Assembly (NCBI RefSeq): GCF_056712565.1
Contig: NZ_CM160072.1
Reading direction: 5' to 3' (one strand)
DNA: 64,000 bases
This document shows positions 21,283 through 38,865 of this stretch, piece after piece. The notes under the pieces were generated by a model. That model was given only the letters and a program-made list of their open reading frames with translations, made no database searches and was not told the DNA's origin. How positions within the stretch are numbered: the stretch's first letter is position 1; the number at the start of each line of letters is the position of its first letter. Position numbers and translations under genes: made by a program.

Positions 21283-21294
21283 TAATAAAAGCAC

Positions 21295-21319
21295 GCCACC
21301 TTCGGGTGGCGTTGTTTTA
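21295..21319 (+). terminator. intrinsic terminator after ytfP
   Basis: CGCCACC-ttcg-GGTGGCG hairpin followed by TTGTTTT. Confidence 0.7.
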
Positions 21320-21660
21320 TGCGATGTATCTCGCGATTTTTTTTGTAACTTTCCCATCTTTTGCTTTTCTCTCCGGGCCGCTTTCCATATCTGCAATCGC
21401 ATAAAAAACTCTGCTGGCGTTAACAAATGTACAGGGGTAAAACGGGGACACGCTTTGAACGGTGAGTATGAGTGAGGCCGGCTAACTTCCAGCAAGTGGC
21501 TATGAACAGCAAAATGGTGGTCGAGTTTAGCTTGTTCTTACCGTTCAAGCCTTTCAACTGCTGAAAATAATAATAGTGGAGTAGAGAGTTTATAAATTGC
21601 GGGCATAAAAAACCCTTACTAACCGAAGCCCGGTGTTCAGGGTTATTGCGCCAGAAGAAC

Positions 21661-22191
21661 TTATTTATTCTTGGCGCGCTCGAAGGAAGCAACGATTTCA
21701 GCTTTAGCGGCTTCTGCGTTTTCCCAACCTTCAACTTTAACCCACTTGCCTTTTTCGAGGTCTTTGTAGTGCTCGAAGAAGTGAGCGATTTGCGCTTTCA
21801 GCAGCTCTGGCAGATCGTTAACGTCTTTAATGTGATCGTATTCTTTGCTCAGCTTGGTGTGCGGAACAGCAATCAGTTTCGCATCTTCACCGGCTTCGTC
21901 GGTCATTTTCAGTACGCCAACCGGACGGCAGCGGATCACAGAACCCGGCTGCAGCGGGTACGGAGTCGGGACCAGTACGTCAACCGGGTCACCGTCCAGA
22001 GACAGAGTGTGGTTGATGTAACCGTAGTTGCACGGATAGAACATCGCGGTGGACATGAAGCGGTCAACGAACAGTGCGCCGCTCTCTTTGTCGATTTCGT
22101 ATTTGATCGGATCTGCGTTAGCCGGGATCTCAATAACAACGTAGATGTCTTCCGGCAGATCTTTACCCGCAGGGACGTTGAGTAAGCTCAT
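21661..22191 (-). CDS. ppa: inorganic pyrophosphatase
   Basis: 176-aa ORF; family I PPase sequence. Confidence 0.95.
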
Positions 22192-22409
22192 GTCTGTTTC
22201 CTTTAAAAATATGTGGCAAACAAGTGCCGAGTATTATAGCCAACTCGCGCCGAATGTCTTCGCTTGTTTTCGTCTTCATTTTCCTTTTTCGCCAGTTTTA
22301 AGACGGTATACAGAGCAGGAAAATCCATAACCGTAGCCGCATTTTTCATAGTGAGATGAAAGCGATTACAAACTTGTGATTAACGTTTTATTTACTTTTT
22401 TGAAGTGTG

Positions 22410-22430
22410 ATGTAACGCAATCCGTTACAT
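22410..22430. promoter_or_regulatory. 8-bp inverted repeat ATGTAACG-N5-CGTTACAT upstream of ytfQ; candidate operator
   Basis: Perfect palindrome read directly, about 70 bp upstream of ytfQ ATG; partial CRP-like half site TGTGA adjacent. Confidence 0.35.
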
Positions 22431-22500
22431 AACGAATTGTCTATAGTTTTTTCGCGAACATCTTTTCACCAATAATAATTACCCCGACGAGGACAACCCT

Positions 22501-23457
22501 ATGTGGAAACGCTTACTTGTAGTCTCTGCAGTCTCGGCAGCCATGTCGTCTATGGCGTTGGCCGCTCCATTAACAGTAGGATTTTCGCAGGTCGGATCGG
22601 AATCCGGCTGGCGCGCCGCAGAAACCAATGTGGCGAAAAGTGAAGCCGAAAAACGCGGTATCACACTGAAAATTGCCGATGGTCAGCAAAAGCAGGAAAA
22701 CCAGATTAAAGCGGTACGTTCCTTCGTCGCACAAGGGGTGGATGCGATCTTTATCGCTCCGGTGGTGGCGACGGGTTGGGAACCGGTATTAAAAGAGGCG
22801 AAAGATGCCGAAATCCCGGTCTTCTTGCTTGACCGTTCCATCGATGTGAAAGACAAATCTCTCTATATGACCACCGTTACTGCCGACAACATCCTCGAAG
22901 GCAAGTTGATTGGTGACTGGCTGGTAAAAGAGGTCAATGGCAAACCGTGTAACGTGGTTGAGTTGCAGGGCACCGTTGGGGCCAGCGTCGCCATTGACCG
23001 TAAGAAAGCCTTTGCCGAAGCCATTAAGAATGCGCCAAATATCAAAATTATCCGCTCGCAGTCAGGTGACTTCACCCGCAGCAAAGGCAAAGAAGTGATG
23101 GAGAGCTTTATCAAAGCGGAAAACAACGGCAAAAACATCTGCATGGTTTACGCCCATAACGATGACATGGTGATTGGTGCAATTCAGGCAATTAAAGAAG
23201 CGGGCCTGAAACCGGGCAAAGATATCCTGACAGGCTCTATCGACGGCGTGCCGGACATCTACAAAGCGATGATTGATGGCGAAGCGAACGCCAGCGTTGA
23301 ACTGACGCCGAACATGGCAGGTCCTGCTTTCGATGCGCTGGAGAAATACAAAAAAGACGGCACCATGCCTGAAAAGCTGACGTTAACCAAATCCACCCTT
23401 TATCTGCCTGATACCGCAAAAGAAGAGTTAGAGAAGAAGAAAAATATGGGGTATTGA
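22501..23457 (+). CDS. ytfQ: periplasmic sugar-binding protein of ABC transporter (galactofuranose-type)
   Basis: 318-aa ORF with signal peptide; periplasmic binding protein fold. Confidence 0.9.
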   Translation: MWKRLLVVSAVSAAMSSMALAAPLTVGFSQVGSESGWRAAETNVAKSEAEKRGITLKIADGQQKQENQIKAVRSFVAQGVDAIFIAPVVATGWEPVLKEAKDAEIPVFLLDRSIDVKDKSLYMTTVTADNILEGKLIGDWLVKEVNGKPCNVVELQGTVGASVAIDRKKAFAEAIKNAPNIKIIRSQSGDFTRSKGKEVMESFIKAENNGKNICMVYAHNDDMVIGAIQAIKEAGLKPGKDILTGSIDGVPDIYKAMIDGEANASVELTPNMAGPAFDALEKYKKDGTMPEKLTLTKSTLYLPDTAKEELEKKKNMGY

Positions 23458-23465
23458 GGGTTGCT

Positions 23466-23577
23466 ATGCCTGATGCCGATTCGTAGGCCGGATAAGGCGC
23501 TCGCGCCGCATCCGGCGGTTGTGCGCTGAAGCCTGATGCGACGCTTACCGCGTCTTATCATGCCTACTGGGAGCACG
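23466..23577. repeat. REP elements
   Basis: GCCTGATGC...GTAGGCCGGATAAGGCG... units between ytfQ and ytfR. Confidence 0.6.
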
Positions 23578-23596
23578 CTTTACACCGGGGGAAACC

Positions 23597-25099
23597 ATGA
23601 CGACCGACCAACACCAGGAAATCCTCCGCACCGAAGGATTAAGTAAATTTTTCCCCGGTGTCAAAGCGTTAGACAACGTTGATTTCAGCCTGCGCCGTGG
23701 CGAAATCATGGCGCTGCTCGGTGAAAACGGGGCGGGAAAATCGACGCTAATCAAAGCATTAACCGGTGTATACCACGTCGATCGCGGCACTATCTGGCTG
23801 GAAGGCCAGGCTATCTCACCGAAAAACACCGCCCACGCACAACAACTCGGCATCGGCACCGTCTATCAGGAAGTCAACCTGCTACCCAATATGTCGGTCG
23901 CTGATAATCTATTCATAGGTCGCGAACCCAAACGTTTCGGCCTTCTACGCCGTAAAGAGATGGAAAAGCGCGCCACCGAACTGATGGCATCTTACGGTTT
24001 CTCCCTCGACGTGCGCGAACCGCTCAACCGCTTTTCAGTCGCGATGCAGCAAATCGTCGCCATTTGCCGGGCTATCGATCTCTCCGCCAAAGTGCTGATC
24101 CTCGATGAACCCACCGCCAGTCTCGACACTCAGGAAGTAGAGTTACTGTTTGGCCTGATGCGTCAGCTTCGCGATCGCGGCGTCAGCCTGATCTTCGTCA
24201 CTCATTTTCTCGATCAGGTTTATCAGGTTAGCGATCGGATCACCGTCTTACGTAACGGCAGTTTTGTGGGCTGTCGGGAAACCCGCGAGCTACCGCAGAT
24301 CGAACTGGTAAAAATGATGCTGGGGCGTGAACTGGACACCCACGCGCTTCAGCGTGCCGGGAGAACATTGCTGAGCGACAAACCTGTTGCCGCGTTCAAA
24401 AATTACGGCAAAAAAGGAACGATCGCGCCGTTTGATCTCGAAGTACGCCCCGGCGAGATCGTCGGTCTGGCAGGCTTGCTGGGATCAGGACGTACCGAAA
24501 CCGCCGAAGTGATCTTCGGTATCAAACCTGCTGATAGCGGCACGGCGTTGATCAAAGGCAAACTGCAAACGCTACGCTCGCCACATCAGGCTTCGGTTCT
24601 TGGCATTGGCTTCTGCCCGGAAGACAGGAAAACCGATGGCATCATCGCTGCCGCCTCGGTGCGGGAAAATATCATCCTTGCTCTCCAGGCCCAGCGCGGC
24701 TGGTTACGACCTATTTCCCGCAAAGAGCAGCAAGAGATTGCCGAACGCTTTATCCGCCAGCTTGGCATTCGCACACCTTCCACCGAACAACCGATTGAAT
24801 TTCTCTCCGGCGGCAATCAGCAAAAAGTGTTGCTTTCACGTTGGCTACTGACCCGACCGCAATTTCTGATTCTCGACGAGCCAACGCGCGGAATTGATGT
24901 TGGTGCCCACGCCGAGATCATCCGCCTGATTGAAACGCTGTGCGCCGATGGGCTGGCGCTGCTGGTGATCTCCTCCGAGCTGGAAGAGCTGGTGGGCTAT
25001 GCCGACCGGGTGATTATCATGCGCGATCGCAAACAGGTAGCGGAGATCCCGCTGGCAGAGCTTTCCGTTCCGGCGATCATGAACGCCATTGCGGCGTAA
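23597..25099 (+). CDS. ytfR: sugar ABC transporter ATP-binding protein (duplicated ABC domains)
   Basis: 500-aa ORF; Walker A GENGAGKST and second ABC module. Confidence 0.9.
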   Translation: MTTDQHQEILRTEGLSKFFPGVKALDNVDFSLRRGEIMALLGENGAGKSTLIKALTGVYHVDRGTIWLEGQAISPKNTAHAQQLGIGTVYQEVNLLPNMSVADNLFIGREPKRFGLLRRKEMEKRATELMASYGFSLDVREPLNRFSVAMQQIVAICRAIDLSAKVLILDEPTASLDTQEVELLFGLMRQLRDRGVSLIFVTHFLDQVYQVSDRITVLRNGSFVGCRETRELPQIELVKMMLGRELDTHALQRAGRTLLSDKPVAAFKNYGKKGTIAPFDLEVRPGEIVGLAGLLGSGRTETAEVIFGIKPADSGTALIKGKLQTLRSPHQASVLGIGFCPEDRKTDGIIAAASVRENIILALQAQRGWLRPISRKEQQEIAERFIRQLGIRTPSTEQPIEFLSGGNQQKVLLSRWLLTRPQFLILDEPTRGIDVGAHAEIIRLIETLCADGLALLVISSELEELVGYADRVIIMRDRKQVAEIPLAELSVPAIMNAIAA

Positions 25100-25109
25100 G
25101 GAGAATAGT

Positions 25110-26135
25110 GTGATGCCTCAATCTCTCCCGGACACTACGCCGCCGAAAAGGCGTTTTCGCTGGCCAACAGGAATGCCGCAGCTGGCGGCACTGTTGCTGG
25201 TGCTGCTGGTTGATAGCCTGGTGGCCCCGCATTTCTGGCAGGTGGTGCTTCAGGATGGGCGTTTGTTCGGTAGCCCTATCGACATTCTTAACCGTGCGGC
25301 CCCCGTTGCGCTACTGGCGATTGGCATGACGCTGGTTATCGCCACTGGTGGGATTGATCTCTCCGTAGGGGCGGTGATGGCTATCGCCGGAGCCACAACG
25401 GCTGCGATGACGGTCGCGGGATTCAGCCTGCCAATTGTTTTGTTAAGCGCCCTGGGCACTGGCATCCTGGCAGGATTGTGGAACGGCATACTGGTAGCGA
25501 TCCTCAAAATTCAGCCGTTTGTCGCCACCCTGATCCTGATGGTCGCCGGGCGCGGCGTGGCGCAACTGATCACCTCCGGACAGATCGTCACATTTAACTC
25601 ACCGGATCTCTCCTGGTTCGGCAGTGGATCGCTGTTGTTCCTGCCAACGCCAGTCATTATTGCGGTGCTGACGCTTCTCCTGTTCTGGCTGTTGACCCGC
25701 AAAACGGCACTGGGGATGTTTATCGAAGCCGTTGGTATCAACATTCGGGCGGCAAAAAATGCCGGGGTAAACACGCGGATCATCGTCATGCTCACCTACG
25801 TGTTGAGCGGGCTATGTGCGGCGATTGCGGGCATTATTGTGGCGGCGGATATTCGCGGTGCCGATGCCAACAATGCCGGATTATGGCTGGAGCTGGACGC
25901 CATTCTTGCAGTGGTGATTGGCGGCGGATCGCTGATGGGCGGGCGCTTTAACCTGCTGCTTTCGGTGGTGGGGGCGCTGATTATTCAGGGAATGAACACC
26001 GGAATTTTGCTTTCTGGCTTTCCGCCGGAGATGAACCAGGTGGTGAAAGCGGTGGTGGTGCTTTGCGTGCTGATTGTCCAGTCGCAACGCTTTATCAGTC
26101 TGATTAAAGGGGTACGTAACCGTGATAAAACGTAA
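25110..26135 (+). CDS. ytfT: sugar ABC transporter permease
   Basis: ORF 25089-26135; probable GTG start at 25110 five nt after AAGGAGA; 341 aa. Confidence 0.8.
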   Translation: MMPQSLPDTTPPKRRFRWPTGMPQLAALLLVLLVDSLVAPHFWQVVLQDGRLFGSPIDILNRAAPVALLAIGMTLVIATGGIDLSVGAVMAIAGATTAAMTVAGFSLPIVLLSALGTGILAGLWNGILVAILKIQPFVATLILMVAGRGVAQLITSGQIVTFNSPDLSWFGSGSLLFLPTPVIIAVLTLLLFWLLTRKTALGMFIEAVGINIRAAKNAGVNTRIIVMLTYVLSGLCAAIAGIIVAADIRGADANNAGLWLELDAILAVVIGGGSLMGGRFNLLLSVVGALIIQGMNTGILLSGFPPEMNQVVKAVVVLCVLIVQSQRFISLIKGVRNRDKT

Positions 26136-27117
26136 TTTGCCACTGATGATCACCATCGGCGTCTTTGTGTTGGGTTATATCTACTGTCTGACCCAGTTTC
26201 CCGGTTTTGCTTCCACAAGAGTGATCTGCAATATCCTGACCGATAATGCCTTTCTTGGGATAATCGCCGTTGGCATGACCTTTGTGATCCTCTCCGGTGG
26301 GATCGATCTCTCCGTCGGTTCGGTGATCGCCTTTACCGGCGTGTTTCTGGCAAAAGTGATTGGCGATTTCGGCCTCTCGCCGCTGCTGGCGTTTCCGCTG
26401 GTGTTGGTGATGGGCTGTGCCTTCGGCGCATTTATGGGGCTTCTGATTGATGCCCTGAAGATCCCGGCGTTTATCATTACCCTTGCGGGAATGTTCTTTT
26501 TGCGTGGCGTCAGCTATCTCGTTTCGGAAGAGTCGATCCCGATAAACCATCCTGTTTATGACACGCTCTCAAGCCTTGCGTGGAAAATCCCTGGCGGTGG
26601 TCGCTTAAGTGCGATGGGACTACTGATGCTGGCGGTGGTGGTTATCGGCATATTACTCGCGCATCGTACCCGTTTTGGTAATCAGGTATACGCCATTGGC
26701 GGCAACGCAACGTCGGCAAACCTGATGGGGATTTCCACTCGCAGCACCACTATTCGCATTTATATGCTCTCCACCGGACTGGCAACGCTGGCGGGGATTG
26801 TCTTCTCGATTTATACCCAGGCCGGATATGCACTGGCGGGCGTAGGTGTGGAACTGGATGCTATCGCCTCAGTGGTAATTGGCGGTACGCTTTTGAGTGG
26901 TGGCGTTGGAACGGTATTAGGGACGCTTTTTGGCGTGGCGATTCAGGGACTGATTCAGACTTACATAAACTTTGATGGCACGCTGAGTTCCTGGTGGACG
27001 AAAATCGCCATCGGTATTTTGTTGTTTATTTTTATAGCATTACAGCGTGGATTAACGGTGCTGTGGGAGAATCGTCAGAGTTCGCCAGTGACAAGAGTCA
27101 ACATTGCGCAGCGATAA
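26122..27117 (+). CDS. yjfF: sugar ABC transporter permease
   Basis: 331-aa ORF overlapping ytfT 3' end by 14 bp. Confidence 0.85.
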   Translation: MIKRNLPLMITIGVFVLGYIYCLTQFPGFASTRVICNILTDNAFLGIIAVGMTFVILSGGIDLSVGSVIAFTGVFLAKVIGDFGLSPLLAFPLVLVMGCAFGAFMGLLIDALKIPAFIITLAGMFFLRGVSYLVSEESIPINHPVYDTLSSLAWKIPGGGRLSAMGLLMLAVVVIGILLAHRTRFGNQVYAIGGNATSANLMGISTRSTTIRIYMLSTGLATLAGIVFSIYTQAGYALAGVGVELDAIASVVIGGTLLSGGVGTVLGTLFGVAIQGLIQTYINFDGTLSSWWTKIAIGILLFIFIALQRGLTVLWENRQSSPVTRVNIAQR

Positions 27118-38802: not shown

Positions 38803-38816
38803 AATTTAAAAACGGG
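38803..38816. promoter_or_regulatory. TreR operator-like palindrome in treB promoter
   Basis: Perfect 14-bp palindrome CGGGAACGTTCCCG; second inverted repeat ATCGTT-N6-AACGAT about 20 bp further upstream of treB. Confidence 0.5.
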
Positions 38817-38865
38817 AACGTTCCCGAAACGCAGCGAAGATCACAATTTATCGTTCAGGAAACGA

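Follow-up and report, generated by a model that had tools for sequence, protein, structure and literature searches.

A conserved candidate operator with CytR-type half-sites in the core promoter of ytfQRT-yjfF

CytR operators and the described regulation of ytfQ

CytR is an atypical member of the LacI family that accepts relaxed spacing between its half-sites (PMC3454398; PMC9422980). It recognizes octamers of the form AATGYAAC and GTTRCATT in inverted or direct orientation (PMC3454398), which lie 0-11 bp apart (PMC9422980), and the preferred spacings are either short (up to 4-5 bp) or one helical turn (PMC3454398). A CRP operator is always located within 5 nt of the CytR operator; in nupG and tsx, a CytR half-site overlaps the proximal CRP site, and an arrangement with a single CRP site is known only at cytR itself (PMC3454398). 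The CytR half-site derived from SELEX is AATGYAACG.

Among the sugar transporters of E. coli, only the one encoded by ytfQRT-yjfF has been characterised as specific for furanoses; it is a galactofuranose/arabinofuranose ABC transporter (PMC10191376). The regulation of ytfQ has been described in terms of GalR/GalS, AraC and cAMP: AraC regulates ytfQ (PMC10191376; PMC7843439), the GalR ChIP-chip ratio at ppa/ytfQ (22) is the third highest genome-wide (PMC5110547), and in a cya mutant ytfQ is 3.6-fold and ytfR 5.2-fold down (PMC4512719).

Within this already complex GalR/AraC/CRP promoter lies a palindrome, at positions 22410-22430 of the 64-kb stretch of DNA analysed here (the window), that is most likely a protein-binding operator whose repressor is encoded elsewhere, with CytR as the best candidate. 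With the CytR operators of udp, cdd, ycdZ/nupT, nupG, tsx and deoP2, it has in common inverted half-sites that fit AATGYAAC/GTTRCATT, a non-canonical spacing within the range of 0-11 bp, a CRP site at about -41 (a predicted one at ytfQ) that is touched or overlapped, and high conservation of the orthologous sites in Enterobacteriaceae. It differs from them in carrying T/A where the strong natural half-sites examined here carry C/G and in having two strong half-sites, whereas the natural CytR operators examined have at most one that scores 8/9. Furthermore, the ytfQ element covers the proximal CRP site and continues 3' of it instead of lying between two CRP sites, and its target is a sugar ABC transporter, while CytR targets are nucleoside genes.

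The palindrome in its promoter context

Read directly from the sequence, positions 22410-22430 (4449871-4449891 in MG1655, where coordinates equal those of the window plus 4427461) form a perfect inverted repeat of 8+5+8 nucleotides, ATGTAACG caatc CGTTACAT, exactly as the first-pass annotation had described it; no strand is assigned to the element. The 27-mer form of the region is GTGATGTAACGCAATCCGTTACATAAC. The arms can be stretched to 11 nt (22407-22417 and 22423-22433) with complementarity at 10 of 11 positions, and the TGTGA pentamer at 22406-22410 shares one base with the repeat. In agreement with the earlier placement about 70 bp upstream of ytfQ in a 309-bp divergent region, the palindrome ends 70 nt before the ytfQ ATG at 22501, in the intergenic region 22192-22500 between ppa (21661-22191, minus strand) and ytfQ-ytfR-ytfT-yjfF (22501-27117, plus strand), all assigned from open reading frames and the MG1655 annotation. 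The ppa promoter (22260-22233, minus strand) is far from it. The absence of an adjacent regulator gene is likewise confirmed: the neighbours of the operon are ytfP, ppa, fbp and mpl, and the nearest regulator gene in the window, treR, is about 16 kb off. The window is E. coli DNA; its ppa/ytfQ intergenic region is 100% identical to that of strain FDAARGOS_536 and 98.7% identical to that of a K-12 genome, and our literature search yielded no earlier report of the palindrome.

As a bare inverted repeat, the element is not beyond chance in the window: 45 perfect 8-bp repeats of this kind, with 0-12 nt between the arms, occur there (compared with about 14 in shuffled sequence), and in four of these the spacer is 5 nt long. 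When up to three mismatches are allowed, the pattern of the palindrome is expected 0.19 times per window, and no second copy was found in the 64 kb, either with up to three mismatches or with other spacings. What lifts the palindrome above chance is the conservation of its arms across orthologous promoters.

To cover these promoters, ytfQ loci were taken from one genome per species, and the upstream regions of 22 Enterobacteriaceae were aligned (Escherichia, Citrobacter, Pseudocitrobacter, Enterobacter, Superficieibacter, Phytobacter, Mangrovibacter, Pluralibacter and several MAGs). Metagenome contigs were scanned with a pattern in which only TGTGA, CA and the -10 block were fixed and the arms were left free; about 110 of 120 matches were ytfQ promoters, in about 30 variants. 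Genomes and metagenomes were pooled into 51 distinct 60-mers, in which ATGTAAC (22410-22416) and GTTACAT (22424-22430) are 94-100% conserved, against 33-82% for spacer and flanks (61% at 22420, 76% at 22422, 45% at 22423, and 33-76% at 22431-22435, directly 3' of the right arm). The conserved unit is hence 7+7+7, ATGTAAC-N7-GTTACAT, and of the 8-bp arms noted at first, which are perfect in this strain, seven nucleotides are retained by the family; the eighth G:C pair is strain-specific, with G at 22417 in 82% and C at 22423 in only 45% of the distinct orthologous promoters, and it reads G..T in MG1655. One-base variants of the arms (GTAACAT, GTTACCT, AGTAAC and GTTTCAT) are rare. In Pluralibacter gergoviae both arms are lost while TGTGA, CA and the -10 are retained, and the block was not found in Erwinia, Pantoea, Serratia, Pectobacterium, Yersinia, Aeromonas or Vibrio.

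Judged by these alignments, both arms are under strong purifying selection. Two separately fixed 7-mers with dyad symmetry and a free spacer have the signature of a dimeric DNA-binding protein. The promoter itself appears to do without the arms, since P. gergoviae keeps TGTGA, CA and the -10 in their absence, and this fits a negative site. The proposal in the first-pass annotation of an operator-like element read by a protein acting in trans gains support from this phylogenetic footprint, with near-invariant arms in some 50 distinct promoter variants and variation in the spacer and in the 6 nt beyond the right arm.

The palindrome is followed by a -10 hexamer of the sigma-S/sigma-70 type, TATAGT, at 22442-22447 (plus strand), with a C before it at 22441. 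A C just before the -10 is the form preferred by sigma-S. This agrees with the strong RpoS dependence of ytfQ in EDL933, where it ranks with the genes that depend most on RpoS (wild type/rpoS ratio, 879; PMC2907692). The invariant -10 (cTATAGT) would place the transcription start at about 22454-22455, and relative to this start the right arm spans about -31 to -25. A CRP-like site, TGTGA-TGTAAC-GCAAT, is predicted at 22406-22421 (plus strand, centre 22413.5) and holds the left arm of the palindrome; its centre would fall at about -40.5/-41.5, a class II position. Compared with TGTGA-N6-TCACA, its left half matches at 5/5 and its right half (GCAAT) at 2/5 positions, and the class II fit assumes the start at about 22454-22455. 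The sequence TTGTCTATAGT is conserved in 22 of 22 genomes. TGTGA and the right-half CA, neither of which served as an anchor in this alignment, are likewise invariant in the 22 genomes, including P. gergoviae. CRP may be expected to occupy TGTGA-N6-GCAAT. The CRP-like half-site originally placed just before the repeat is thus real as an invariant TGTGA, but the two elements do not simply follow each other: the palindrome overlaps a fuller CRP-like site as well as the -35 region. There is no canonical -35 in the ytfQ core promoter, and GTTACA was ruled out as a -35 hexamer, being only 12 nt from the -10. For ytfQ, neither a start-site entry nor coordinates were found in the Kim 2012 supplements, nor was there a ytfQ entry in the CRP ChIP-exo supplements.

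In its layout, ytfQ is similar to class II CRP promoters with an overlapping repressor operator: TGTGA-N6-nCAnn lies about 41 bp 5' of the predicted start, and a repressor-type palindrome overlaps the CRP-like site and the -35 region. It differs from that class in the weak right half of its CRP site (2/5), and both the start and CRP binding are predictions at ytfQ. Directly 5' of the CRP-like site is a further conserved block, TTAAC(R)TT..ATTCAC-TTTTyyGAA (22380-22404), and 5' of this block a second TGTGA is present at 22375-22379 in Escherichia, Citrobacter and Enterobacter.

The described regulators have sites of their own in this promoter. A GalR/GalS-type operator of canonical form, ATGAAAGCGATTACAA (22356-22371, plus strand; 16 bp with central CG, consensus match 10/10), is present in 22 of 22 genomes; the GalR ChIP-chip paper does not list it (PMC5110547). 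The motif that was assigned to the ppa/ytfQ ChIP-chip peak (a peak validated by ChIP-qPCR), GTGGAAACGCTTACTT (PMC5110547), was placed in the window by the 4427461 offset and lies at 22503-22518 (plus strand, consensus match 9/10). It overlaps the start codon and first codons of ytfQ, since the gene starts with AUGUGG (first codons MWKRLL). The two operators are 147 bp apart, or 14.0 helical turns, which suggests gal-like DNA looping. In other genera the operator pair falls into distance classes of 132-133 (as in Pluralibacter), 146-148 and 231-244 bp; in about half of the genera, some 85-100 bp of inserted DNA separate the core promoter from the upstream GalR operator (between 22371 and 22380), and the AraC and GalR sites are thereby moved to 231-244 bp from the start-codon operator (in our locus numbering L005, L006, L009-L012, L014, L015, L017, L018 and L053).

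Further upstream is an AraC-type direct repeat (22313-22350, plus strand) that consists of the I1-like GAGCAGGAAAATCCATA and the I2-like TAGCCGCATTTTTCATA, with starts 21 bp apart. It was named on the basis of TAGC-N7-TCCATA, as in araI1, which we take to be the AraC half-site consensus; its layout, GAGC-N7-TCCATA, 4 nt, TAGC-N7-TTCATA, is conserved across genera. Whereas I2 abuts the -35 at araBAD, the ytfQ repeat is more than 100 bp 5' of the predicted start.

Between TGTGA and the -10, across the palindrome, every lineage of the 22 genomes and the metagenome variants is free of insertions and deletions, whereas the distance of the palindrome varies by 5 bp to the start-codon GalR operator and by about 100 bp to the upstream operator. 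Because of this fixed register and these varying distances, the palindrome belongs to the core promoter. By sequence and position, it is distinct from the GalR/GalS operators and the AraC repeat, and it corresponds to none of the known sites of the promoter, since these lie elsewhere and it keeps register with the core promoter instead.

CytR and alternative readings of the arms

The palindrome is probably the operator of a factor that has not yet been connected with ytfQ, be it an uncharacterised regulator of Enterobacteriaceae or CytR. We tentatively predict that it is a CytR/CRP anti-activation operator. Its arms have the form of LacI-family half-sites, but they lie 5 bp farther apart than in a canonical operator of that family. 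Measured against the SELEX half-site AATGYAACG, the arms GATGTAACG and TATGTAACG each match at 8/9 positions, a score equal to that of the best natural CytR half-sites as read from MG1655, i.e., TATGCAACG in udp and cdd and ACTGCAACG in ycdZ. A convergent pair in which both members score at least 8/9 occurs only at ytfQ in the 64-kb window, where 0.07 are expected. Scored as octamers, GATGTAAC and GTTACATA match the CytR consensus at 7/8 each. The ytfQ sequence ATGTAACGCA(A/T)T is similar to the operator of udp, ATGCAACGCATT. In cdd, 2 nt separate a CRP-like 16-mer, TTTGATGTATGTTTCA, read here as CRP-2, from CGTTGCATAA; at ytfQ, the CRP-like core TGTGATGTAACGCAAT lies 1 nt before CGTTACATAA. 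The closeness to CRP that is typical of CytR is also found, in that the predicted CRP site contains the left half-site (gATGTAACg) and ends 2 nt before GTTACAT. The cAMP dependence of ytfQ is counted in favour of CytR as well.

Several observations speak against it. At the Y/R positions, all lineages have T/A and none has C/G, and the strong natural half-sites of udp, cdd and ycdZ use TGCAA. The octamers at ytfQ are separated by 7 bp, which is inside the range of 0-11 bp; however, their centres are 15 bp or about 1.4 turns apart, outside the preferred classes. CytR operators usually have a second CRP site on their other flank, at a conserved distance; here, only a weak TGTGA-N6-TTTTA was found, centred 31 bp upstream, and among the 22 genomes it is seen in Escherichia, Citrobacter and Enterobacter and is not conserved elsewhere. 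We found no link between CytR and ytfQ in the literature; a comparative-genomics study of CytR proposed only ycdZ as a new member, and its supplement has nothing on ytfQ. In addition, the match is not unique to CytR, because TGTAAC and GTTACA are also the half-site hexamers of GalR. The T/A bases, the spacing, the missing CRP sandwich, the literature and the GalR hexamers together hold our confidence in CytR somewhat short of even. In PPTP-seq data, CRISPRi against cytR leaves the ytfQ promoter at 2.85 compared with 2.79 (log10), a result that carries no weight because the activity of this promoter is near the lowest in the sheet.

According to the mechanism that we propose, CytR would bind with or over CRP between -44 and -24. 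The left half-site, gATGTAACg, would be read within the spacer of the CRP-like site at about -41.5, and the right half-site, cGTTACATa, 2 nt past the CRP-like site at about -31 to -25. A CytR dimer in this position might retain CRP or displace it, and might occlude the -35 region; the operon would then lack CRP-dependent (and sigma-S/sigma-70) transcription until cytidine frees CytR. Such an action would be independent of the GalR/GalS operator pair, although inside it, and downstream of the AraC site. Both the binding of CytR to the palindrome and the negative sign of regulation are inferred here.

The evidence from conservation and position would serve equally well for a different dimeric factor of Enterobacteriaceae that acts in trans, reads GTAAC-N7-GTTAC and represses by keeping CRP and RNA polymerase off the promoter, and we regard this as a serious, if somewhat doubtful, possibility. 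It would account for T/A being strictly invariant at positions where CytR would tolerate C/G. The centres of the half-sites are then 12-13 bp apart, a distance that suits many helix-turn-helix dimers. Also in its favour, our search yielded no literature in which ytfQ is connected with a factor of this motif; on the other hand, no candidate protein could be named, and a second copy is missing in the 64-kb window. Furthermore, it would have to be accidental that both 7-mers fit the CytR consensus exactly (for a random 7-mer, about 1 in 8000) and that CRP is adjacent.

Among the known factors considered for this role, TreR was rejected, its presumed operator, the palindrome CGGGAACGTTCCCG upstream of treB, bearing no resemblance to ATGTAAC..GTTACAT. 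The consensus of the TyrR box is TGTAAA-N6-TTTACA, and its outer bases TGTAA..TTACA are similar; the ytfQ palindrome, however, has N7 and C/G at the inner positions. The PadR operator, with the consensus ATGT-N8-ACAT, is similar in its outer ATGT..ACAT, but the spacing in the palindrome is ATGT-N13-ACAT; PadR was all that surfaced in a literature search for ATGTAAC/GTTACAT, and its operator has the wrong spacing. UvrY, LexA, HexR, NagC/Mlc, GntR/IdnR, PurR, Cra, ModE, FlhDC and AraC half-sites were ruled out by the sequence or spacing of their motifs.

GalR and/or GalS might bind the arms in a non-canonical manner, as an auxiliary site in the loop between the canonical operators, and this we consider unlikely. 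The palindrome resembles GalR/GalS operators (gal OE/OI and the two of ytfQ itself) in its hexamers, its dyad symmetry and its location in the same promoter; the canonical upstream operators of other genera, GTGTAACCGGTTACAC and TTGTAACCGGTTACAA, share the hexamers TGTAAC/GTTACA, the T at the variable position suits GalR (K) better than CytR, and the ChIP-chip ratio at ppa/ytfQ ranks third in the genome (PMC5110547). However, canonical operators are 16-bp dyads, composed of the halves xTGxAAxC and GxTTxCAx with a central CpG, and at a cut-off of 9/10 the palindrome is not among them: the two 16-mers that overlap it score 6/10 and 8/10, neither with a central CG, and the better one (22415-22430), 8/10 here, scores 5-7/10 in other genera. 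The hexamers are 7 bp apart instead of 2, i.e., the arms are 5 bp too distant, the centre of symmetry is a single base and the central CpG is absent. Moreover, the distance between the palindrome and the GalR operators is not conserved, and to our knowledge CytR is the only LacI-family protein that tolerates such wide spacing.

That the arms are conserved only through recognition by CRP and RNA polymerase, or by chance, with no separate factor involved, is very improbable. The left arm is indeed inside the CRP-like site, and 8-bp inverted repeats are common in the window. The spacers of CRP sites, however, are normally free of sequence constraint, and the right arm is outside the 22-bp CRP site and, at 12 nt from the -10, too close for a -35. 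P. gergoviae has lost the arms and still has TGTGA, CA and the -10, and nothing would explain why two independently conserved 7-mers show dyad symmetry.

Marginally less probable still is that the repeat works as a hairpin and not as a duplex protein site, whether as RNA within a 5' leader transcribed from a promoter farther upstream (e.g., an AraC-dependent one) or as a DNA cruciform: although the predicted RNA hairpin (-9.2 kcal/mol, z = -2.1) and DNA hairpin (-7.3 kcal/mol, z = -4.0) count in its favour and the G:C to G:U change in K-12 preserves RNA pairing, the folding energies are modest, the palindrome lies upstream of the predicted transcription start, both arms are fixed in sequence with no compensatory changes, the rare variants GTAACAT, GTTACCT and AGTAAC break the pairing, and several genera have G-A or T-T as the eighth pair. 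The palindrome has neither a terminator-like site nor a T-run, and an Rfam search at this position matched no family, the only match, OrzO-P, having 22 bits (E = 0.34) where the gathering score is 60.

An operator at the palindrome is an ordinary kind of element and apparently an additional regulatory input, and the gain from it is incremental and not conceptual. With a third, deeply conserved candidate operator in the core of the promoter, the described regulation of ytfQ is incomplete; if the operator is real, a fourth input controls the promoter besides GalR/GalS, AraC and CRP. Should the protein be CytR, a furanose transporter would be tied to the regulon for scavenging of nucleosides (ribofuranosides), which hints at an unrecognised substrate or physiological role of YtfQRT-YjfF. 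The small CytR regulon would thereby gain a non-nucleoside member that has its best consensus operator, and an operator over, not between, CRP sites would inform on the flexible recognition by CytR. If another protein binds, the 21-mer is a ready bait to assign a function to an orphan regulator.

Further features of the locus and the window

The 5' leader of ytfQ contains a conserved block (22467-22493, CCAAyAATAA..CCCTACGAGGA) with the Shine-Dalgarno sequence inside, at which translation or a small RNA might exert control. The ytfQ gene is reportedly mentioned in a study of AUGUG/GUGUG initiation. In Enterobacteriaceae bacterium RIT691 (L013), unrelated G+C-rich sequence replaces the whole CRP/palindrome/-10 block about 130 nt 5' of ytfQ, and the leader and the start-codon operator are still present.

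On the other side of ppa, the gap to ytfP (21283-21660) is 378 bp, compared with 886 bp in MG1655; the chpS-chpB toxin-antitoxin pair, found between ytfP and ppa in K-12, is absent here. The perfect palindrome CGGGAACGTTCCCG mentioned above lies at 38813-38826 (minus strand) 5' of treB with an adjoining TGTGA, and is presumably a TreR operator with a CRP site.
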